DNA from: an uncultured Thermoleophilaceae bacterium
GTDB lineage: Bacteria > Actinomycetota > Thermoleophilia > Solirubrobacterales > Thermoleophilaceae
NCBI GenBank assembly: GCA_963734365.1
Contig: CAVTGV010000003.1
Location: forward strand, 84,794-148,793
Direction of reading: 5' to 3'
Length of the DNA: 64,000 nucleotides
The number at the start of each line of letters is the position of its first letter. Position 1 is the first letter of the stretch. The notes beneath the pieces are model-generated. The model made no database searches and was not told the DNA's origin. It worked only from the letters and a program-made list of their open reading frames with translations. Both the position numbers and the translations under genes were made by a program. Of this stretch, positions 9,140-21,038 are shown one piece after another.

Positions 9140-10219
9140 ATGGCCCCTTCCGCCACCGCGGCGGCCGAGGTCGTGGTGGTCGGGGCGGGAATCGTGGGGC
9201 TGTCCACCGCCTACGCGCTCGCCGAGCGCGGCGTGGACTTCCGGGTGTTCGAGGGCGCCCGGCCCGGCGCGGGGCAGTCGGCAGGGCGCACCCGCATCTT
9301 CCGTCACGCGCACCGGCGCCCGGAGCTGGTGCGCCTGGCCGCCGAGTCGCGGGCCATCTGGGAGGAATGGCAGGAGCGTCTGGACGTGCAGCTGCTCGGC
9401 CGCCAGGGCCTTGTGGTCACCGGCTCCCACGCCCCTGACCTGGAGACCATGCTTGTGGCGGAGGGCCTGCCCGCACGGCTGCTCGACCCGGCCGATCGGC
9501 AGCGTGTGCTGCCGATCATGGGACCGGTGGAGGCGCCCGCCGTGCTCGACGAGCTGGCCGGCCCCACCGATGTCCGCGCGGCCATCGCCACCTTGGCGGC
9601 CGCGCTCGGCGACCGCCTGAGCGCCGGCCAGGTGTTCCGGGTCGATCCGGGCGAGCCCGCGGTGGTGGAGACCTCCGAGGGGATCTGGCACGCCGAGCGA
9701 GTGGTGATCTGCGCGGGGGTCGGCATCCGCGAGCTGGCTCCGGCCGCGGGTTTCCACGTCCCGGTGTCCGTGGGCTGTCACGTACGGGCGAGCTTTCCGC
9801 TGCGCGATCCGTCGCTGGCCGGCCGGCTGCCCTGTCTCCAGGAGCAGAGCGGCGACCACTGCGAGATGGTCTACGCCTCCCCGGTGCCCGGGGCCCCGCT
9901 CTACGGCGTGGGCCTCGTCGGCGACGATGCCGAGGTCTCGCTCGAAGCCGGCCGGGAGGCGGGGGTGGCGTCGATGGTGTCCCGGATCGCCGCGTACGTG
10001 CGGGAGGCCCTGCCCGGCCTCGACCCGGAGCCGGCCGAGCTCAGGCTGTGCCTGACCACGATGCTCCCCGAGGGTGACGACACGTGCCGGGTGTGGGAGA
10101 ACGGCTCGGTGCTCGCCGTGGCGGGCGACAACCTCTTCAAGTTCGGCCCACTGCTGGGAAGACGCCTCGCCGCGGCCGCGCTGGGCGAGGGCCTGCTGGA
10201 CCTCACACGCGCGTCGTGA
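9140..10219 (+). CDS. FAD-dependent oxidoreductase (DAO / sarcosine-oxidase-like family)
   Basis: N-terminal Rossmann motif VVVVGAGIVGLSTAYALAERG; 359 aa. Confidence 0.8.
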   Translation: MAPSATAAAEVVVVGAGIVGLSTAYALAERGVDFRVFEGARPGAGQSAGRTRIFRHAHRRPELVRLAAESRAIWEEWQERLDVQLLGRQGLVVTGSHAPDLETMLVAEGLPARLLDPADRQRVLPIMGPVEAPAVLDELAGPTDVRAAIATLAAALGDRLSAGQVFRVDPGEPAVVETSEGIWHAERVVICAGVGIRELAPAAGFHVPVSVGCHVRASFPLRDPSLAGRLPCLQEQSGDHCEMVYASPVPGAPLYGVGLVGDDAEVSLEAGREAGVASMVSRIAAYVREALPGLDPEPAELRLCLTTMLPEGDDTCRVWENGSVLAVAGDNLFKFGPLLGRRLAAAALGEGLLDLTRAS

Positions 10220-10220
10220 C

Positions 10221-10775
10221 CTAGACGGACGATTCCACGGGCGTGTCGACCTCACGGATCAGAGCCTCGAGCAGGTCGTACAGGCGCTCGCCCAGCTCCG
10301 GCATCACGAGCTCGTCGTCGGGGCTCAAGGCCAGCTCGGCGGTGGGCACCGGGAGCTCCTCGTCGAGCACGCGGGCGCCCGCGTGGCGCAGGACTTTACG
10401 CAACTCGGCCTGGGCCCAGACGGCCCCGAACAGGCCGGTGCTCGCGCCGATCACCGCCGCCGGCTGATCGCGCAGCGCGTTGTCGGGAAAAGGCCGCGAG
10501 GCCCAGTCGACGGCGTTCTTCAAGAGCCCCGGAATGGAGGCGTTGTACTCGGGTGTGCTGAAGAGCAACGCGTCGGCCGCGGCGATCTCGTCGCGCAGGT
10601 TCCGCACGGAGGGCGGCGGATCGGTCTCGTGGTCCTCGTCGAAGGGCGGGATCTGCGCCAGCTCCCGGTAGAGGTCGAGCTCCGCTCCGGGCGGCAGCGA
10701 ACGGGCCGCCGCCCGGAGCAGACGGGAGTTGTACGAACCGCGCCTGAGCGATCCCGAGATGCCCAGGATGCGCAT
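10221..10775 (-). CDS. NADPH-dependent FMN reductase
   Basis: MRILGISGSLRRGSYNSRLL N-terminus and TPEYNASIPG motif. Confidence 0.85.
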   Translation of the reverse strand: MRILGISGSLRRGSYNSRLLRAAARSLPPGAELDLYRELAQIPPFDEDHETDPPPSVRNLRDEIAAADALLFSTPEYNASIPGLLKNAVDWASRPFPDNALRDQPAAVIGASTGLFGAVWAQAELRKVLRHAGARVLDEELPVPTAELALSPDDELVMPELGERLYDLLEALIREVDTPVESSV

Positions 10776-12594: not shown

Positions 12595-13476
12595 ATCGAT
12601 CTCCGGCAGCTGAAAAGCGTCGAGGCGGTGGCGCGCCACCGTCACTTCACCCGGGCCGCGGAGGAGCTCCACCTCTCGCAGTCGGCGCTGTCACACCAGA
12701 TTCGGCGGCTCGAGCGGGAGCTCGGCACCCCGCTGTTCGAGCGCACGAGCCGCCGCGTGACGCCCACTCAGGCAGGACTGGCGATCGCCGCTCGAGCCCG
12801 CCGTGTCCTAGCGGAGGTGAATGGAGCACGTGAGGAGGTCGACGAGCTCCGCGGCGTGCTGCGCGGCCGCATCTGGATCGGGGCGCTCCTGCCTGCAGGG
12901 GACCTGGACGTTCCCGGCCTGCTGGCGCGCTTCAGCCGAGACCACCCGGGCATCGAGGTCGGGCTCCGCGAGGGCATCGCCGCCGACATGCTCCAGTTCC
13001 TGGCTGCCGACGAGCTCGACGCGGCCTTCTGCCTACTGGCCGGCGAGATCCCCGACGAGCTCGACTCCGAGCGACTTACCGACGAGGAGGTGGTGGCCGC
13101 CTTCGCCCCCGACCGTGCGCCGCGGGGGCCCGACGTCGGCGCGGCCGAGCTCGCCGAAGCCGTGCTCGTCGCGCCTCGCCGCGGCTCGGCGATCACCTCG
13201 GCCTTGGACGAGCTGTTCGCCGGAGCGGGGCAGCCACTTCGGCTCGCCCTCGAGAGCGGCGACCCGTTCCTACTGCGCTCCCTCGCCGCACGAGGCTTCG
13301 GCACGGCGATTCTGCCTCGCTCGATGATCGGGCTGGAAGGACCGGCCGTGGCAGTGCGAAGACTGCGCCCGGCCATTCGCCTGCCCGTGGCTCTGGTCTG
13401 GCGCCGCGAGCGCAACGCGCCGCCCGCGGCACGCAAGTTCATCGAGTTCGTCCGGCGGGAGACGGCCGGCTCCTAG
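12595..13476 (+). CDS. LysR family transcriptional regulator (apparent ATC at the expected start position)
   Basis: HTH HFTRAAEELHLSQSALSHQIRRLERELG. The conserved N-terminal I-DLRQLKSVEAV lies upstream of the first canonical start (GTG 12628). The frame is open only from 12526 and has no ATG/GTG/TTG before 12628. Confidence 0.75.
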   Translation: MDLRQLKSVEAVARHRHFTRAAEELHLSQSALSHQIRRLERELGTPLFERTSRRVTPTQAGLAIAARARRVLAEVNGAREEVDELRGVLRGRIWIGALLPAGDLDVPGLLARFSRDHPGIEVGLREGIAADMLQFLAADELDAAFCLLAGEIPDELDSERLTDEEVVAAFAPDRAPRGPDVGAAELAEAVLVAPRRGSAITSALDELFAGAGQPLRLALESGDPFLLRSLAARGFGTAILPRSMIGLEGPAVAVRRLRPAIRLPVALVWRRERNAPPAARKFIEFVRRETAGS

Positions 13477-13889
13477 CGTCGGCCGGACCGCCGCTGGGCA
13501 TCTGCCCTGCCTGCGGCTCAGGCCGTCCGTCGGGATCTTTCGCTCCTCTGAGCCCTCGTCGGCCAGGGGTACGGGTCGAGCCGGTCGAGGCGGGTCGTGG
13601 GCTCGTCGGAGCAGCTGCGCCTCGGTGGGCGATGGGGGCCGTTTGGCGGCCGGCCGACACCGGTTGTGAAGTAGCCGGGGCGCCCCTGGTGGAGGCGGTT
13701 TTGCGTATACGTGCACGGGTTTTCGGGGGTTAAAAATTCGCAATTTGCGGGAAAACCGAGCGAATCTTGTGCGTTGGTTGGTCGAGCAGTGCGAAGTGGT
13801 GGGTAGGTCGAAACGGTCTCGAGGGATCCCTTTGTGAGTGTCGAACGAACAGCACCAGTAGTGGCCCGGCCGGAGGTCGGGGGCTCCGC

Positions 13890-16800
13890 ATGAAGCGTCT
13901 GGCGACAGCAGCGGCTGTCGCCTGCGCAGCCTTGGCGGCCTGGGCACCCAGCGCCGGTGCCCAGCTTCCCGCCGCTCCCGCTGCTCCGTCGTTGACCGAT
14001 CCCGCCGCGGCGGTTTCCGATGTCACGGAAGCGGTTCCCGCGGTGGCCGAGGCGGTCCCCGAGGTCGTCGAAGCGGTCCCGGACGCGACCGAGGTGGCTG
14101 CCGCGCCGACGCCGGCGGCCGACCCGCCGGCCGCGCCTCAGCCTGAGGCCGCCCCGGCTCCGGTCGACTCGCCGTCGTCCACTCCGGCCGCGCCTTCGGA
14201 CGGCGGTGGCCGAGCCATCGACCCAGCAGGCCGATCCGGTGAGCGCGCCGGCCGAGGACAGCGCGCCGGCCCCTGCTCCCTCCGAGAGCGTGGCCTCGCC
14301 GAGCGACGGCACCGACAGCGCACCGGCTTCGCTGCCGGCGAGCCGCCGATGTCGTCGCGCCGGTGACCGATGCCGCGGACGACGTGGTCGCCGCGCTGCC
14401 GCTCGAGACGACCGACACCAGCGAAACGATCGACACGCCCGACGCGCCCGTGCCGCCTCTGCCCGAAGCGGACGCTGCCCCCTCGACGCCGGGGACGACC
14501 GAGACTCCGGCCCTGCCCGTCCCGGCACCCGCCCCGGCCGCTGCCGACGACCCGCCCCTGGCGGCAGTCGAGCCGCCGACGGGCTGCTCGCCGGTGACCG
14601 ACACAACCAATGACCTGGTCGGCCCCGACAGACACCGCCGACGACGTTGCGGGCGTTCTCACCCAGCCGGCCGATCCGGTGGCCCCGGCCGAGACGTCCG
14701 GCGACGTGGTTGCCCCGCTGACTGACGCGGGCGACGATCTGGTGGCGCCGGTGGCCGAGACGTCCGGCGATGTGGTTTCTCCGCTGGGCGACGTCGCCAC
14801 CGATCTGATGGCACCGGTCACCGACATCGCGGACGACGTGGCGGCCCCGGTGACGGACGCCGCTGACGATCTGGTCGCGCCGGTCACGGATGCCACGGAC
14901 GGTCTGGTCGCGCCGGTCGCGGACGTCACGGATGATCTGCTGGCACCGGTCGCGGATGCCGCGGACGATCTGGTCGCCCCGGTCGCCGACGCCACGGATG
15001 ATCTGCTCGCCCCGGTCGCGGATGCCACGGACGATCTGCTGGCACCGGTCGCGGACGTCACGGATGATCTGCTGGCCCCGGTCACGGACGTCACGGACGA
15101 TCTGCTGGCCCCGGTCGCGGACGTCGACGGACGATCTGGTCGCCCCGGTCGCCGGACGTCACGGACGATCTGCTCGCCCCGGTCGCCGACGTGACGGACG
15201 ATCTGGTCGCCCCGGTCACGGACGTCACGGACGATCTGCTGGCCCCGGTCGCCGACGTGACGGACGATCTGCTCGCCCCGGTCACGGACGTGACGGACGA
15301 TCTGCTCGCCCCGGTCACGGACGTCACGGACGATCTGCTGGCCCCGGTCGCCGACGTGACGGACGATCTGGTCGCCCCGGTCACGGACGTCACGGACGAT
15401 CTGCTGGCCCCGGTCGCCGACGTGACGGATGATCTGCTGGCCCCGGTCGCGGACGTCACGGACGATCTGCTGGCCCCGGTCGCCGACGTCACGGATGATC
15501 TGCTGGCCCCGGTCGCCGACGTCACGGATGATCTGCTGGCCCCGGTCGCCGACGTCACGGACGATCTGCTGGCCCCGGTCGCGGACGTCACGGATGATCT
15601 GCTGGCCCCGGTCGCCGATCTCACGGACGATCTGCTGACCCCGGTCGCCGACGTCACGGACGATCTGCTCGCTCCGGTCACGGACGTGACGGATGATCTG
15701 CTGGCCCCGGTCGCCGATCTCACGGATGATCTGCTGGCCCCGGTCACGGACGTGACGGATGATCTGCTGGCCCCGGTCGCCGATCTCACGGATGATCTGC
15801 TGGCCCCGGTCGCCGACGTCACGGATGATCTGCTGGCCCGGTGGCCGATCTCACGGATGATCTGCTGGCGCCGGTCACGGACGTCACGGATGATCTGCTG
15901 GCCCCGGTCGCCGACTCACGGATGATCTGCTGGCCCCGGTCGCCGACGTCACGGATGATCTGCTGGCCCCGGTCGCCGATCGTCACGGATGATCTGCTGG
16001 CCCCGGTCGCCGATGTCACGGATGATCTGCTCGCCCCGGTCGCGGATGTCACGGATGATCTGCTGGCGCCGGTCACGGACGTGACGGATGATCTGCTGGC
16101 CCCGGTGGCCGATCTCACGGATGATCTGCTGGCGCCGGTCACGGACGTCACAGATGATCTGCTCGCCCCGGTTGCGGACGCTGCCGACGATCTGCTCGCC
16201 CCGGTCACCAACACCGCCGACGATCTGCTGGCTCCGGTGACTGATGCCGCGGATGATCTGCTCGCCTCGGTGCTCGACGAGGCCGGCGCTCTTGTCGGAC
16301 CGTTGGTTGCACCGGTGACGGGGACGCTGGCGCCCATCGTTGATTCAGTCGCACCGGTGTTCGCTGGGCTGGATCAGGCCCTTTCACCGGTAGGCGGACT
16401 GGTGGCGCCCCTTACCGGCTCGCTCCCCCGGGTGGATGTCGATCTGGGCGTCGAACTCCCTGGCCCCCACGCCGGTTCCCCGGTGCCGACCTCGGGACCC
16501 GTGGTCAACGACCGCGGTGTGGCCGCGCTCAAGGATCCGCCGGTGAGCTCGTCCCCGACCGGGATGGGTCTCGGGTCGCCGACACTCTCGCCGACGCCGG
16601 CTGACTCCGGCTCGTCGGTTCACGCCCGCAACTTCGCCGCCGGAACTGGCAACGCGGCCGAATCCATGCCGCTATGGGCCGCAGCCCCGTTCGCGCATGC
16701 TGTTGCTGTCGCCACCGTGGGTGTGCCTGCTGGTGACGTTGGGTCCTCGCAGCGGCCGGTGGGTGGCGGTTCGGCGCCTGCGCCGGCGCCGGCGGCGAGT

Positions 16801-16968
16801 TCGGCTGCGGGTTCGGCGGGTGGGTTTGGGTTTGGTTTCAGCTCTTTGTTTGCTCTTCTTGCTTCTCTGGCGGCGTTTGCCGCTTTCCGCTATGGCCGGC
16901 GTTTGCGTTTGGCGCCGGTGTTGTGGCGGCCGGCGGCTTTTGTGGCCGTCATCGAGCGGCCTGGTTAG
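13890..16968 (+). pseudogene. Secreted, C-terminally anchored acidic tandem-repeat protein (~1000 codons), interrupted by at least 8 single-base indels in this sequence
   Basis: GGAGG plus ATG 13890. Signal peptide MKRLATAAAVACAALAAWAPSAGA. The coding sense passes through frames 0,1,2,0,2,1 across tracked ORFs 13767-, 14020-, 14363-, 14610-, 15191- and 15841-. C-terminal helix LFALLASLAAFAAF followed by RYGRRLR. Confidence 0.7.
14700..16290 (+). repeat. 33-bp (11-codon) tandem coding repeat array, consensus GACGTCACGGACGATCTGCTGGCCCCGGTCGCC = DVTDDLLAPVA
   Basis: The period is visible directly in the sequence. Roughly 45-50 units, estimated from length divided by period and not counted one by one. 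More degenerate units flank the core at about 14640-14700 and 16290-16400. Confidence 0.9.
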
Positions 16969-17039
16969 CCCTTTCGGGGTCGATCAGGTCTGCCTGGGTG
17001 CTGTGCGTGCCTGGGCCAATCGCTCGATGAGGAGAAACC

Positions 17040-17237
17040 ATGTTTTCGACATATGGCTCGGGCATCCGGCGAGCCGGGCTGGTGGCAGTGATTGCCGCTG
17101 TGGTCCTGTTGTGGGTGCCCGCTACCGGCTTTGCCGCCGGCGCCTCGGGGACGGCGACGTTGCGTCCCGTGCTGGCACCGGTCGGCGCAGGCCGGGACGG
17201 CCCCGGTGGCGAGGTGGGCGGGGTATTGGACCCCTAG
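17040..17237 (+). CDS. Small signal-anchor ORF, possibly the severed N-terminus of the downstream gene
   Basis: GAGGAG lies 6 nt before ATG 17040. MFSTYGSGIRRAGLVAVIAAVVLLWVPATGFAAG reads as a positive N-region followed by a TM helix. Confidence 0.5.
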   Translation: MFSTYGSGIRRAGLVAVIAAVVLLWVPATGFAAGASGTATLRPVLAPVGAGRDGPGGEVGGVLDP

Positions 17238-17262
17238 GGCCCATTCGCGTGCCGAGGGGCTA

Positions 17263-18498
17263 GTGCAGCGGCGCGTGAGGGTGATTCAGCGTGTGCTGAC
17301 TCGGTTGGGTAAGCGTCCGGGGCCGGTGGACGGGTTGTTTGGTCCGTTGACCGAGGCTGGTGTGGTGCGCTTTCAGCGCTCGGTGGGTATCGCCGCGGAC
17401 GGGGTCGTTGGGCGCCAGACCGCCCGGCAGCTGTTGGCTGCCGCGACACGCCTGTCTGACACGCGGCTGGCGCGCAACCCGGGCGCGGCTCGGGACACGG
17501 GTCGGTTTGCCAGTGCGCGTTTGCCGAGGGGCGGGACGGTCGACCAGGCCGCACAGAACGGGCCCACTGGGCTCGGTGCTTCGGTCTCGCAGGCCGCCGC
17601 GCCGGGCCAGGAGGAAGAGGTCGAGCCGGCTCTGATGCTGGCGTTGGCGCTGCCTCTGCTGCTGGTCTCGGCGCTGCTGGGTGCGCTGCGGGGACGCGTC
17701 ACACCCGCACGCGAACCGAAGACAAACGGAGGAACCATGAACAACTCAGTAATGATCCCGGCCGCCCCCCGGCCGGCGCCGGAAACCACCGGCCACAGCG
17801 GTAACACCGGTAACAACAACAAGGCCCCGGCCAGGCCGGAGCAGCGCGAGGCGTTGCGGGCGATCGGGTATGTGACCGGCGGCCCGCAGGGGGATGTCGA
17901 GGAGTCGGGGGTGCGCGACCAGATGGCCGCCATCGCCGCCAGCTGTGTGCAACGCGGCTGGGATCTGCTGGAGATCGTCCGCGATGTGGAACGCGAAGGC
18001 GTCCGGGCCCCCGAACGACCCGGACTGGTCCACGCCCTCAAACGCCTGGAGGCCGGTGAGGCCGGCTGCCTGATCATCTACTCGCTGCCAAGGCTGAGCC
18101 CCACGGTGACCGAGCTGGGCAGCATCCTCAAGCAGATCGGCCGCGGCGGCGGGCGGTTTGTCTCGCTAGAGGACCAGATCGACACCGCCGAACCGGCCGG
18201 ACGAAAGGCGGCCAACGTGATCGTCTCGGTCAGCGGCTGGGAACGCGAACGACTCGGCGAACGCACCCGCGAAGGGCTCGCCGCGGCCCGCGCCAAAGGC
18301 AGCTCGATCAGCCGCCCCTCGGTACAAGACGTGCCCATGCTCAAAGAACGCGTCGCCGAAATGAGAGCCGAAGGCATGACCCTCCAAGCGATCGCCGACT
18401 GGCTCAACGACGCCGGCGTACCCACCCTAAGAGGCGGACAGAAATGGCGCCCCTCAAGCGTCCAAGCCGCCGCCGGCTACAAAAGACCCAAACGATGA
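17263..18498 (+). CDS. Peptidoglycan-binding domain + TM helix + catalytically degenerate serine-recombinase (resolvase)-like domain with C-terminal HTH
   Basis: PG_binding_1 pattern VIQRVLTRLGKRPGPVDGLFGPLTEAGVVRFQRSVGIAADGVVGRQTARQL. TM helix ALMLALALPLLLVSALLGAL. Resolvase core AIGYVTGGPQ...RPGL...YSLPRLSP...WERERLGERTREGL. GTG 17263 is tentative. Confidence 0.75.
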   Translation: MQRRVRVIQRVLTRLGKRPGPVDGLFGPLTEAGVVRFQRSVGIAADGVVGRQTARQLLAAATRLSDTRLARNPGAARDTGRFASARLPRGGTVDQAAQNGPTGLGASVSQAAAPGQEEEVEPALMLALALPLLLVSALLGALRGRVTPAREPKTNGGTMNNSVMIPAAPRPAPETTGHSGNTGNNNKAPARPEQREALRAIGYVTGGPQGDVEESGVRDQMAAIAASCVQRGWDLLEIVRDVEREGVRAPERPGLVHALKRLEAGEAGCLIIYSLPRLSPTVTELGSILKQIGRGGGRFVSLEDQIDTAEPAGRKAANVIVSVSGWERERLGERTREGLAAARAKGSSISRPSVQDVPMLKERVAEMRAEGMTLQAIADWLNDAGVPTLRGGQKWRPSSVQAAAGYKRPKR

Positions 18499-18545: not shown

Positions 18546-19541
18546 CTAGCTGAGCCATTCGTAGAGGGGGCCCTCGGCGACGGTGACCAGCTCGGGCTCG
18601 ATCTCGTTGCCGGCGGCGACGAGCGCCTCGGCCACCGCGACGTAGTCGCGCCCGGGCAGGGCGTGGGCGCCCGAGCCGTGCGCGGCCCACGCCAGGGGCG
18701 TGCCGGAGGCGGTGGCCGGGTTCGCTTCCGCTCCTCGAGCCAGCAGCCGCCGGACGACGTCCGGGCTGCCCACCCAGGCGGCGTGGTGAAGCAGGCTGCC
18801 GTTGGGTGAACCTCCCACCACACCGGCGAAGTCGGGGCCCACGGCGTCAACGACCGCGTCGAGCTCCCCGCGCAGGGCGGCGAGGATCAGCACCTCCTGA
18901 GGATCCGGATCGAGCGCGTCCGGCAACGGTGCCTCGGGGCGCTCGCCACGAGCCACCGCCGCCACTGCCAGATCCGCGGCGGCCACATCCGTGGCCGCGC
19001 CCTGGCCCGCCAGCAGCCGCGCCTCCTCGGCGCGATTTCTCAGCAGCGCGTGCTGGTAGGGGGTGCGAAGGGGTACGCGACCGCGCCAGGTCTCGCCCCC
19101 GGGCCGATCGAGCTCGGCCCCGCGGTCGGCCAGCAGGGCCAGGAACTCCGTCCCGCGGCCGCGCCGCACGGCGTGGGCCAGCAGGGCTCCCTCGTTGGGG
19201 TCGGCCCCGGCGTCGAGCAGCAGGCGGACGTGCTCCAGGCGTTCGTCGTCGAGCGCGTGCGCCAAGGCGTTGGTGCCGTTCGGCTGGGCGCCGTGGCCCA
19301 AGAGCAGCGCCAGGCATGCCGGATCCTCGGCTTCGGTGGCGTGGTAGAGCGACTCGCCGTCGTCGGGATCGGCTCCGGCCTCGAGCAGCAGGCGGGTGAG
19401 CTGGGGATCGTGGGCGATGCCGGCCGCGCCGTAGAGGGCCGACATGCGCCCGTGCTCGTTCACGAAGGAGGCGTTGGGATCGGCGCCGCGCCGGAGCAGC
19501 GCTTGGGCGAGCTCGGCCGACGCGAAGCACGAGTGGCACAC
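18546..19541 (-). CDS. Ankyrin-repeat protein (the coding signal appears to continue upstream to about 19742-19757)
   Basis: Repeated LLLxxGADPN ankyrin units. The first canonical start is GTG 19541, but the frame stays open and protein-like for 72 more codons. Confidence 0.8.
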   Translation of the reverse strand: MCHSCFASAELAQALLRRGADPNASFVNEHGRMSALYGAAGIAHDPQLTRLLLEAGADPDDGESLYHATEAEDPACLALLLGHGAQPNGTNALAHALDDERLEHVRLLLDAGADPNEGALLAHAVRRGRGTEFLALLADRGAELDRPGGETWRGRVPLRTPYQHALLRNRAEEARLLAGQGAATDVAAADLAVAAVARGERPEAPLPDALDPDPQEVLILAALRGELDAVVDAVGPDFAGVVGGSPNGSLLHHAAWVGSPDVVRRLLARGAEANPATASGTPLAWAAHGSGAHALPGRDYVAVAEALVAAGNEIEPELVTVAEGPLYEWLS

Positions 19542-19821
19542 GTAGACGAGCGGCGCCCAGGCGCGCGGCCCGCCGGGCTCGTTGGGATCGCCCTCCCAGC
19601 CGTGCCCGAGTACGAGCCGGGCCCAATCGTCCTCGGCGATGGCCGGTTGGGCGGCGAGCAGCGCCTCGGCGCGTGTCCTGTGGCGCCCGGTGGCGGCGAG
19701 GACGAACTCGTCGGCGGGGGTGGCGAGGGGCTGAGAGCCGATGACCGGCGGATTGAATCAAGTCTGCTGCGCCGGCCCTCTGAGACAATCCTCCTGCGTG
19801 CGTGGCCTACGCCCGGATCGG

Positions 19822-20577
19822 ATGGCTCTTCGGCTCTGCGCCTTCTGCGCCTGTGCAGCCGCGCTCTGGCTCGCGACGCCGCCGCCGCCGGCGCTCGCCG
19901 CGCCGCGGTGCGGCCCGGGGCAGTCCGACGCTCACGTGGTCGGCCGGCCTGGATCCGACACGGCCTGGCGGGCCGGGCCCCTCGCGCGCACGCGGCTCTG
20001 GCGCTCGGTGCCGAAGCGCAATGACAGCAGCATCGGCTGGGTCGGGTCGGGAGAGGCACCCTGGCTGCTGGTGCTGCGCACGGCACGGGATCGCCAGGGG
20101 CGCTGCTGGCTGCGCGTACGGCTGCCGTCCCGGCCCAACGACGCCGCCGCCTGGATCAACGCCGAGCGCGTGGAACTGCGGCCCACGCGCTGGCGCATCG
20201 TCGTGTCGCGACGCGCCCGGACGCTCACGGTCTACCGCGACAGTCGCCGGCTGCGTCGCTTTCGAGTGGTCGTCGGCACGCCCTCGACCCCCACGCCGCA
20301 CGGCCTCTTCTCGATCGTGGGCGTCTGGCCCTGGGATCCGGCGGACTTCCTCGGCTCGTACATCCTTCCGATCACCGCGCACAGCAACGTGCTCCAGGAG
20401 TTCGGTGGGGGCGACGGGCGGGTGGGCATCCACGGACGCGGCGGGCCCAGCCTGCTCGATCCGCTCGGGGCCGCGCGCAGCCACGGCTGCATACGCCTGG
20501 CCAACGGCGCGATCGAATGGCTCGTCCGCAGGGTGGGCGCGCATCGGCTGCCCGGCATTCCCCTGCGCGTGCGCTGA
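19822..20577 (+). CDS. L,D-transpeptidase (YkuD domain)
   Basis: Signal peptide MALRLCAFCACAAALWLATPPPPALA. Catalytic motif SHGCIRL. Confidence 0.85.
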   Translation: MALRLCAFCACAAALWLATPPPPALAAPRCGPGQSDAHVVGRPGSDTAWRAGPLARTRLWRSVPKRNDSSIGWVGSGEAPWLLVLRTARDRQGRCWLRVRLPSRPNDAAAWINAERVELRPTRWRIVVSRRARTLTVYRDSRRLRRFRVVVGTPSTPTPHGLFSIVGVWPWDPADFLGSYILPITAHSNVLQEFGGGDGRVGIHGRGGPSLLDPLGAARSHGCIRLANGAIEWLVRRVGAHRLPGIPLRVR

Positions 20578-20669: not shown

Positions 20670-21038
20670 GTGGTGAAGACGGCGCCTCGCGTTGCGCGCG
20701 TGGGCACCCGGATTCGCTTCAGGCTGACCGTGACGAACGTCGGGTCGGTCGCTGCGCGGAGCGTGGTGATGGCGGACGTCCCGCCGGCGGCAGTCGCGCT
20801 GGCCGCTCTCAAGACTCGCACCCGAGGGCAGGTCGTCCGGGGAAACGCCGTATGGCGCCTCGGAACGCTCGCCCCGGGAGCGAAGCGCACCGTGAGCGGA
20901 ACCGTCCGCATAAAGGCCGGGACCCCTGGCCTCAAGCGCAATCTGGTGCTGGTCACGGCCGCCAACGCCAAGCTGGCAAGGGATCGGGCCGATTCGAGGG
21001 TCAAGGCCCGGCAGCGGGTCTCGCCGGTCACCGGATAG
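20670..21038 (+). CDS. Single DUF11-like (conserved repeat) domain protein, possibly a fragment
   Basis: Pattern RIRFRLTVTNVGSVAARSVVMADVPP...VWRLGTLAPGAKRTVSGTVRI. No signal peptide. GTG start. Confidence 0.5.
   Translation: MVKTAPRVARVGTRIRFRLTVTNVGSVAARSVVMADVPPAAVALAALKTRTRGQVVRGNAVWRLGTLAPGAKRTVSGTVRIKAGTPGLKRNLVLVTAANAKLARDRADSRVKARQRVSPVTG

Follow-up and report, generated by a model that had tools for sequence, protein, structure and literature searches.

The question raised by this locus is what a serine-recombinase fold may do when its catalytic residues are missing and it is joined, through a transmembrane helix, to a peptidoglycan (PG)-binding domain. The locus lies in a stretch of 64,000 nucleotides from an uncultured Thermoleophilaceae bacterium; the whole stretch is called the window below (G+C content 71.6%). 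The gene concerned, gene 2, is encoded on the + strand downstream of a partner gene, gene 1. As judged by profile, alignment and fold comparisons, the gene 2 product is a predicted bitopic membrane protein with a PG-binding domain outside and a recombinase-derived module in the cytoplasm, and this module has lost Arg8, Ser10, Asp67 and Arg71. That the protein works as a membrane-tethered DNA-binding regulator which reports on the cell wall is proposed tentatively, at a little less than an even chance.

Domain organization and catalytic residues of the gene 2 protein

Two neighbouring open reading frames on the + strand cover gene 2, at 17040-17237 (65 codons) and 17092-18498 (468 aa as translated mechanically), and residue numbers of the Pfam matches refer to the latter. 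PG_binding_1 (PF01471) was matched at residues 61-114 with 55.4 bits against a gathering cut-off of 23, and Resolvase (PF00239) at residues 273-403 (E 1.2e-21) with 77.8 bits against a cut-off of 23.3. The Resolvase alignment spans only profile positions 15-143 of 145, so that the Ser10 segment was left unaligned. A C-terminal helix-turn-helix (HTH) at residues 419-458 corresponds to positions 8-46 of the 102 positions of PF07508 (E 8e-6). Only sub-threshold matches were obtained for gene 2 with NCBIfam (XisF, CcrB, SleB, YneB), and PADLOC gave no match to the gene 2 protein, the gene 1 partner and a soluble paralogue, so the gene 2 protein and its partner are not a known defence system.

The structure of the cytoplasmic part (window 17737-18495) was modelled with AlphaFold2 (AF2) on a 66-sequence alignment. 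The model had a mean predicted local distance difference test (pLDDT) score of 85.9 and showed a core of the beta-alpha-beta type, an E helix of 34 residues and, at the C-terminus, three short helices. The search of the model against the PDB by Foldseek returned serine recombinases exclusively (Bxb1, TP901-1, gamma-delta, Tn3, Gin, Sin), with Bxb1 9iu2 (E 9e-10 over 242 columns) and the TP901-1 catalytic domain 3bvp (TM-score 0.83, root-mean-square deviation 2.5 A) as the top matches.

The true reading frame of gene 2 was established by comparison with intact relatives. DNA alignment with the intact short-read (Illumina) contig L082 localized one extra base to 17181-17185, and the joining of 17040-17183 to 17185-18498 gave a protein of 485 aa. 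Over the junction (..LAPV/IAQAGTAPVARW..), the repaired protein agrees with P0121 (486 aa; junction ..LRPVLAPIAQAGTAPVARW..), a cluster mate (>=90% identity) of the annotated 411-aa product. The intact homologues P0002, P0003, P0005, P0006 and P0009 start with MxSTYGSGIRRAGLVA.., the product of the 65-codon frame, and run unbroken into ..AQAGTAPLARWAGYW.., i.e. the other frame of the window; P0121 is likewise intact.

Residues 1-32 of the repaired protein form a predicted signal peptide, MFSTYGSGIRRAGLVAVIAAVVLLWVPATGFA (hydropathy 2.37), whose hydrophobic stretch terminates at ..PATGFA/AG and resembles a cleavable Sec signal peptide; the ectodomain begins after it. A twin-arginine (Tat) signal from IRRAGL was considered and rejected as unlikely, since the Arg-Arg pair varies among homologues. 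The transmembrane helix (Kyte-Doolittle mean 2.55) is flanked by acidic GQEEEVEP on the outer side and basic RGRVTPAREPK on the inner side, and the net charges of the 15-residue flanks, -4 before and +3 after, indicate an N-out/C-in orientation. The placement of the PG domain outside the cell is thus supported by both the signal peptide and the charges around the helix. The helix is followed by a flexible linker of some 58 residues, in which Pro, Thr and Asn are frequent.

Just past the transmembrane helix, an internal Shine-Dalgarno sequence, ACGGAGGAACC, precedes an in-frame ATG at 17737 (17725-17739, ACGGAGGAACCATG), and a start at this site could give a soluble cytoplasmic form. As a family-wide trait the internal start was ruled out, being found in the nearest clade only (the window, L082 and L083).

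For the catalytic residues, 120 homologues were aligned with gamma-delta resolvase and Gin, the gamma-delta part being consistent with phmmer. The residue at position 8 is Thr in the window protein and Ser (63), Thr (52) or Arg (0) in the homologues; at position 10, Gly stands opposite Pro (68), Ser (15), Gly (8), Ala (8), Arg (8) and Glu (6). At position 67 the window protein has Pro, and the homologues have Arg (67), Pro (16) and Asp (0), while position 71 is also Pro in the window protein, with Pro (59), Arg (28) and His (14) among the homologues. Gly5, Tyr6, Asp36, Arg45, Arg68, Glu118, Arg119, Glu124 and Arg125 are kept. When sequences of the PDB were searched by phmmer, the alignment to Gin started at Gin residue 36, with L-P-R-L-S-P opposite L-D-R-L-G-R. 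Arg8 and Ser10 were both missing from 146 of the 150 best representative clusters; of all 150, Arg71 was present in 94 and Asp67 in 35. The gene 2 protein therefore passes the fold test, fails the defining catalytic features and is not to be classed as a recombinase.

A preliminary description of this DNA, made from its letters, had anticipated much of this: the PG_binding_1 domain, the transmembrane helix followed by basic residues, the resolvase fold with a recombinase-type C-terminal HTH, and the placement of the PG domain outside and the recombinase domain inside are all recovered here. Its reading of Y-V-T-G-G-P-Q for Y-x-R-V-S-T-x-x-Q and of P-R-L-S-P for D-R-L-x-R, with the loss of the Ser10, Arg8, Asp67 and Arg71 equivalents, agrees with the alignments to gamma-delta resolvase and Gin, and the E helix that it took as retained has E118, R119, E124 and R125 in place. 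It had further described the upstream 65-codon frame as a signal anchor that one indel at about 17190-17240 would fuse to the downstream gene. That frame does encode the true N-terminus (as in P0002, P0003, P0005 and P0121), although as a cleavable Sec peptide rather than an anchor, and a single extra base does split the gene, although at 17181-17185. Its proposal of a membrane-tethered DNA-binding one-component regulator that senses the cell wall is compatible with the present evidence and is kept here as a proposal. The conserved partner gene, the intercistronic RNA, the size of the family with its restriction to Thermoleophilia, and the probable long-read origin of the frameshift go beyond that description.

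Distribution of the family and the conserved two-gene operon

A word-indexed protein search, in which 8,000 candidates were scored, returned at least 1,142 homologues at E <= 1e-3. Nearly all of the best 120 contain PF01471 together with PF00239 and are 440-680 aa long, and one or two copies of PG_binding_1 are present in homologues. The names of the homologues come from pipelines only ('DNA invertase Pin-like', 'peptidoglycan-binding protein', 'recombinase family protein [Thermoleophilaceae]'), none of the more than 1,100 is a characterised protein, and exact-sequence look-ups for P0001, P0009 and P0121 gave no record. By a genomic locus search with one genome per GTDB species, relatives were found to be encoded at 227 loci, and the named records all belong to Thermoleophilaceae, Solirubrobacterales, Baekduia or unclassified Actinomycetota metagenome-assembled genomes (MAGs). 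Among the 80 of the 227 loci that were listed, several genomes carry 2-4 loci. The genomic loci encode proteins with one or two PG domains, proteins whose short ectodomain is not of the PG type, tandem pairs, and soluble proteins 230-280 aa long. Conservation is highest in the HTH, where 22 residues are invariant among 66 sequences. By these records, the family is a Thermoleophilia-restricted, multi-paralogue one whose recombinase modules are without catalytic residues.

The cytoplasmic part was also searched by phmmer against 1.84 billion cluster representatives, with 18,863 matches at E <= 1e-3, 3,062 at 1e-10 and 275 at 1e-30. The 146 clusters without Arg8 and Ser10 were divided into 50 with PG-binding motifs and transmembrane helices, 38 with transmembrane helices alone and 58 with neither, and the membrane-anchored share is therefore about 60%. 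The full R-S-D-R-R set was present in 4 of the 150 best clusters, all four of them soluble.

Nine contigs of IMG/VR encode relatives of the cytoplasmic part alone. Four of these, high-GC viral contigs (L084-L087), encode proteins of about 215 aa with a canonical catalytic set (..LYVRVSTEEQ.. and ..KLDRLSRS.. in L084-L086), which share the C-terminal module of the family, GLTLQAIADALN..IPTIRGGTHWRVSSVQSAAGYQRRRP, and have no further domain. BLASTP gave 45% identity between the L084 and window proteins across 200 residues; LDRLSRS was paired with LPRLSPT, and the alignment began immediately past the degenerate active-site segment. These four proteins probably represent the ancestral active clade. 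Intact relatives with the same C-terminal module on viral contigs indicate that the family derives from active small serine recombinases, and, because the closest active relatives retain the canonical set, that the loss of the catalytic residues is derived and family-wide. As the C-terminal module is the sole extra domain of the intact relatives, it must be their DNA-binding domain, and this is the main reason for supposing that the family retains DNA binding.

All-against-all clustering of open reading frames from 80 loci identified gene 1 as the sole consistently linked gene. Its ectodomain of about 1,000 aa consists of acidic Pro/Val/Asp tandem repeats and then a Gly-rich stretch, and the 33-nt repeat encodes the 11-residue unit VTDDLLAPVAD. 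In the window, gene 1 is spread over three frames by at least four frameshifts; equivalents lie at 6939-7928 in L001, 6480-7928 in L002 and 7570-9927 in L004, with repeat units of 11-14 aa. Signal peptides were found at the starts of the intact partner copies L004, L034 and L072, and a C-terminus of the form ...LFALLASLAAFAA-R--RRL--AP-WRPxAFVAVIERPG-stop is conserved in about 40 loci. The gap from the end of the partner gene to the family gene is 73 nt in L001 and L002 and 72 nt in the window. Pfam, NCBIfam and PADLOC assigned gene 1 to no family, with only weak similarity to apolipoprotein-type 11-mer repeats, and its homologues are few and all 'hypothetical'. By conservation of arrangement, genes 1 and 2 are a two-cistron operon, in which gene 1 is predicted to encode a surface tandem-repeat protein with a C-terminal membrane anchor.

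Several observations were made around gene 1 itself. The ERPG of its tail (16954-16964) is the tetrapeptide of the (D/E)RPGL motif in the Arg45 region of the recombinase domain (18009-18020), and the tail WRPAAFVAVIERPG is also like the C-terminus of gene 2, WRPSSVQAAAGYKRP (18444-18480); the likeness may be coincidence, mimicry or the relic of a duplicated 3' end. The sequence GAGCGGCCTGG was rejected as a DNA site common to all family genes, as outside the ERPG stop it is mainly the ERPGL codons of the recombinase domain. Long Ser/Thr/Gly-rich frames run antisense to the repeats (14138-16337, - strand), and a counterpart is annotated as a 451-aa gene in L001; the repeat array gives rise to these as mirror-frame artefacts, and they do not represent genes.

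A second operon class was observed as well, which consists of a different secreted protein (..HRLERPG-stop), a multi-stem RNA of 120-140 nt and then a soluble recombinase-fold protein of about 230 aa. This soluble protein is without Arg8 and Ser10 (..IGYASCALPG..).

In the operons of the gene 1 type (class 1), nucleotide conservation covers the final codons of gene 1 and the intercistronic spacer, rare codons included (CCT for Pro and, in one clade, GAA). The window segment 16948-17045 has a minimum free energy (MFE) of -49.3 kcal/mol (z -4.3). For the analysis of covariation, 30 loci were aligned by unguided MAFFT and pairs were called by RNAalifold: 9 of the 18 pairs showed compensatory changes, against 3.7+/-1.3 in shuffles (0 of 500 reached the observed number), and slid-partner controls gave at most 5 pairs with double changes. 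In this alignment 93.5% of the cells were paired, with many G-U pairs on the sense strand. All 41 distinct RNA copies folded individually into the same three-way junction. A covariance model detected 46 copies at 45 loci (twice in L016, once in the window), all on the + strand directly 5' of a PG-type family gene. Scanning of the intergenic region against Rfam assigned no family; the chance match to CC0196 on the opposite strand (17125-17140) reached 13.5 bits against a gathering cut-off of 35 (E 1.6).

The 5' strand of the closing helix P1 is made of the I-E-R codons of gene 1 and its 3' strand ends in the first two bases of GAGGAG; in L017 and L019, CUCCUC codons pair with the entire GAGGAG. 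A ribosome terminating on gene 1 would melt P1 and thereby expose the ribosome-binding site of gene 2, resulting in translational coupling. Through such coupling of gene 2 translation to gene 1 termination, the two proteins would be made together. The spacers of the second class form an analogous multi-stem junction whose closing helix is the ERPG codons. The intercistronic RNA, with its clear support from covariation, is a candidate new family of cis-regulatory RNAs.

Upstream of the operon, a scan was done for CGCAAWTTGCG with at most one mismatch. One copy was found 1.5-4.9 kb 5' of the ERPG stop in 41 of the 44 class-1 loci, against 5 matches in 665 kb of other loci, and for two of the three exceptions the upstream sequence was too short for testing. 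The window has one exact match. Where the start of gene 1 is clear, the palindrome lies 100-150 nt 5' of that start, and TGCGTA hexamers show a 25-fold enrichment in the 100 nt around the palindrome. In the closest loci the block TTGCGTATACGTGCAC is conserved, followed 22 nt on by TCGCAATTTGCGGGAAAA; the block is unchanged in the six closest loci, and in L010, L022, L036 and L041 variants of it are found 34-37 nt 5' of the palindrome. On this conservation, CGCAAWTTGCG is a strong candidate for a regulatory element of the two-gene operon, either an operator or a promoter element. Its form, CGC-N5-GCG, may resemble that of ClgR operators; upstream of clpP in L001 no copy was found.

Coordinates of all these features, together with those of the neighbouring genes, are collected in Table 1. 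The LysR, ankyrin, YkuD and DUF11 neighbours are not conserved beside the family in other loci. Neighbours of the family gene are housekeeping or regulatory, and the gene is chromosomal and outside a mobile-element context. In one orthologue group the order is tig-clpP-clpX-[pair]-valS-folC-ndk-maf-mreB (L001 1651-5094 and 10407-17641; about 20 other loci). The pair is thus near cell-shape genes in this group, an arrangement which looks like synteny by descent and not a functional link.

Table 1. Features of the operon, its surroundings and related loci (positions are those of the window unless a contig is named)
Feature	Position	Strand	Basis or remark
LysR-family regulator	12628-13476	+	upstream of operon
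Conserved block TTGCGTATACGTGCAC with palindrome CGTATACG; one of several TGCGTA-type motifs	13701-13716	+	
Palindrome CGCAATTTGCG	13739-13749		A-tract flanks; ~150 nt 5' of gene 1 start
Gene 1	13890-16968	+	signal peptide MKRLATAAAVACAALAAWAPSAGAQ, repeats, Gly-rich stretch, transmembrane helix, RRLRL, tail WRPAAFVAVIERPG-stop
33-nt tandem array in gene 1	14802-16271	+	Tandem Repeats Finder: 44.5 copies, 86% matches, score 1863
Three-way-junction RNA	16949-17030	+	MFE, covariation, covariance model
P1	16949-16957 with 17022-17030	+	UCAUCGAGC/GCUCGAUGA
P2/P3 hairpin		+	holds gene 1 stop codon 16966-16968
P4, G+C-rich hairpin	~16992-17016	+	
Shine-Dalgarno GAGGAG of gene 2	17029-17034	+	5 nt 5' of ATG at 17040; kept in 30-locus alignment
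Gene 2, first 48 codons	17040-17183	+	agrees with N-termini of intact orthologues
One extra base, context CCGGTCGGCGCAGG	17184	+	DNA alignment with intact contig L082
Gene 2, remaining coding sequence to stop	17185-18498	+	
PG_binding_1, extracytoplasmic (predicted)	17272-17433	+	Pfam PF01471, E 7.2e-15
Transmembrane helix ALMLALALPLLLVSALLGAL	17629-17688	+	hydropathy, flank charges
Serine-recombinase catalytic-domain fold including long E helix	17857-18300	+	Pfam PF00239, AF2, Foldseek, Gin E 2e-16
Degenerate active-site motif Y-V-T-G-G-P-Q	17869-17889	+	Arg8 to Thr, Ser10 to Gly; gamma-delta resolvase/Gin alignment
P-R-L-S-P replacing D67-R68-L-G-R71	18088-18102	+	phmmer to Gin 4m6f; BLASTP to intact relative (LDRLSRS)
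C-terminal HTH, first sub-domain of large-serine-recombinase 'recombinase domain'	18346-18465	+	PF07508
Ankyrin-repeat protein	18546-19541	-	
YkuD L,D-transpeptidase (cell-wall enzyme)	19741-20577	+	downstream
DUF11 protein	20670-21038	+	downstream
Intact recombinases, IMG/VR	L084 2306-3151; L085 4503-5633; L086 1911-2741; L087 2059-2898		
Second operon class	L044, L048, L054, L059, L061, L067, L075, L077, L080: ~9770-10700 in each		
Split family genes	L006, L008, L009, L010, L015, L020, L021, L025, L035: 10000-11800 in each		

Candidate functions and state of the window copy

For the proposed regulator, recombination would have been abandoned by the cytoplasmic module, with dimerisation and DNA binding kept. 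The PG-binding ectodomain would anchor the protein to the cell wall or report its state, and the gene 1 repeat protein might be a wall-spanning co-sensor. The output would be transcriptional control of envelope-related genes, probably including the operon itself via the CGCAAWTTGCG/TGCGTA region, and would be exerted at the membrane or following release of the cytoplasmic part. This proposal draws on the retention of E118, R119, E124 and R125, on the near-invariance of the C-terminal module, the sole DNA-binding domain in the closest intact relatives, on the existence of soluble paralogues (230-280 aa), by which the module appears to work alone, and on the conserved palindrome 5' of the operon. 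A broader scenario, in which Thermoleophilia domesticated a small phage or plasmid serine recombinase into a lineage-specific family of DNA-binding signalling proteins, is considered doubtful. In it, the membrane-anchored members and a wall-spanning tandem-repeat partner would make up a hitherto undescribed envelope-to-DNA module, with its subunits in an RNA-coupled fixed ratio and autoregulated at CGCAAWTTGCG.

Several points weigh against the regulator. Its function is inferred throughout, the homologues being uncharacterised. The palindrome is not nearby in family members outside class 1, although the HTH is shared, and its 11 bp are shorter than typical serine-recombinase dimer sites, so that another regulator may bind it. 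A sigma-70 promoter scan upstream of gene 1, near the palindrome, found none, and the clustering of open reading frames from the 80 loci revealed no envelope-stress genes consistently linked besides gene 1. Sequence-specific regulators with differing targets would not usually have an HTH that hardly varies between paralogues, as is the case here, and it could reflect a common protein or nucleic-acid partner instead. Finally, at least four frameshifts in gene 1 and one in gene 2 stand beside about 12 other window genes that appear intact, and so this copy could be decaying.

The main rival to the regulator is a structural tether or scaffold with no transcriptional role, in which the cytoplasmic module would be a dimerisation or protein platform, or a non-specific DNA clamp joining nucleoid, membrane and wall together with the repeat protein. 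The near-invariant HTH would fit a shared partner, the recombinase module could be a docking site for the conserved cytoplasmic WRPxAFVAVIERPG tail of the gene 1 protein, and a recognisable ligand-binding domain is absent from the family. The neighbourhood of one orthologue group (tig-clpP-clpX ... ndk-maf-mreB) also speaks for it, but this synteny is limited to that group and is not in the window. Against it stand also the soluble paralogues with the same module, the use of this module by the closest active relatives in site-specific DNA recognition, and the conserved palindrome 5' of the operon. A scaffold role is considered rather unlikely.

Independently of these functional readings, the window copy may be a pseudogene, the frameshifts in both genes being genuine mutations of a decaying operon. 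The clustering of all of them within 4.6 kb, with about 12 inspected window genes intact, is in keeping with this, and so is the G+C content at third codon positions of gene 2 (0.79), which is at the low end for the window. Yet either frame segment is free of stop codons or other damage, and the protein is 89% identical by BLASTP to the intact Illumina-derived orthologue P0002 and clusters at >=90% with the intact 486-aa P0121. Nine more copies in long-read MAGs are split by 1-2 frameshifts, their halves being 50-92% identical to intact homologues, which suggests systematic indel errors in such assemblies, and the 33-nt x 44 tandem array is difficult to polish. The frameshift at about 17184 is therefore probably a long-read sequencing error, and decay of this copy is rather improbable.

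An active recombinase with a shifted nucleophile (Ser/Thr at position 8), which perhaps acts on the adjoining tandem-repeat gene, would be consistent with Ser or Thr at this position in 115 of the 120 homologues, with the retention of Y6, D36, R45 and R68, and with R71 and D67 in part of the wider family (94 and 35 of 150 clusters, respectively). Against it, Arg8, Ser10, Asp67 and Arg71 are all missing together in the window protein, and the canonical set in the closest active relatives marks the loss as derived and family-wide. Subunit rotation in strand exchange is hard to square with membrane anchoring, and inverted-repeat crossover sites flanking a segment were not seen, no systematic search having been made; such activity is very improbable. 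The false joining of separate PG-binding and resolvase genes by assembly, named in the preliminary description as a possible refutation and to which the internal in-frame ATG at 17737 with its strong Shine-Dalgarno sequence might point, is excluded, since over 1,000 proteins of many independent assemblies, and 227 genomic loci, show the architecture, the same intact 481-aa protein is found on two unrelated short-read (Illumina) contigs, and the internal start is restricted to the nearest clade.

The finding is thus real, coherent and unexpected, with a mechanism that is inferred and organisms that are uncultured. The size of the family means that the gene 2 protein is not an isolated oddity. 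If the regulator proposal is true, this would be, as far as found, the first serine-recombinase fold without catalytic residues to serve as a transmembrane signalling output, and would provide a new class among the few known membrane-tethered DNA-binding regulators as well as a handle on cell-wall sensing in abundant, almost unstudied soil Actinomycetota. The palindrome of the operon offers testable binding-site predictions.

Comparison with known systems

The preliminary description knew of no account of this architecture, and full-text literature searches likewise yielded no description of it or of a serine recombinase reused without catalytic residues. The architecture itself is not rare: over 1,000 database entries have it, each with an automatic annotation only. 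The serine recombinases listed in a 2022 review on the exaptation of mobile genetic elements are all active. Beside the gene 2 protein, the partner gene, the covarying intercistronic RNA and the operon palindrome are newly found here.

With the small serine recombinases (Gin, gamma-delta and Tn3 resolvases), the gene 2 protein has the catalytic-domain fold and the E helix in common, and with the viral-contig proteins of about 215 aa it also shares the same truncated recombinase-domain HTH. Unlike them, it has lost Arg8, Ser10, Asp67 and Arg71, is fused to a signal peptide, a PG-binding domain and a transmembrane helix, and is encoded by a chromosomal, multi-paralogue family with no mobile-element context. 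Tn3 and gamma-delta resolvases repress their own promoter by binding to res, a precedent for a regulatory role of the fold. The large serine recombinases (Bxb1, TP901-1, phiC31 and LI integrase) are the best structural matches, and the C-terminal helices of the gene 2 protein are equivalent to the beginning of the recombinase domain in these enzymes. The gene 2 protein terminates 10 residues past position 46 of the 102 of PF07508, and the remaining recombinase domain, the zinc ribbon, the coiled coil and the catalytic residues are absent.

The layout of gene 1 resembles that of the yeast cell-wall integrity sensors Wsc1 and Mid2, which have a signal peptide, a long repetitive ectodomain, one transmembrane helix and a short conserved tail. 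The resemblance is one of layout only: the repeats of gene 1 are acidic and abound in Pro, Val and Asp where those of the yeast sensors are Ser/Thr-rich, the sequence is unrelated and the organisms belong to another kingdom.

A wall-contacting domain is coupled to a cytoplasmic module by one transmembrane helix in ExeA/GspA of type II secretion (bitopic, with a periplasmic PG_binding_1 and a cytoplasmic effector domain) and in RodZ (cytoplasmic HTH, transmembrane helix and periplasmic domain), as in the gene 2 protein. The cytoplasmic domains and the domain order differ, the sequences being compared by Pfam only. The HTH of RodZ binds a protein (MreB), not DNA, and is thus a model for the scaffold.

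In its mode of action, the gene 2 protein would be most like the ToxR/TcpP class. ToxR, TcpP and CadC are membrane-bound one-component transcription regulators with co-transcribed bitopic partners (ToxS, TcpH). In both cases a single-pass protein joins an extracytoplasmic domain to a cytoplasmic DNA-binding domain, which is putative in the gene 2 protein, and a single-pass partner is co-expressed. No OmpR-type winged-helix domain was matched by Pfam in gene 2, where the putative output module is a recombinase-derived fold and the putative sensor is PG_binding_1. The orientation is opposite as well, with this sensor N-terminal after the signal peptide and the putative DNA-binding module C-terminal.

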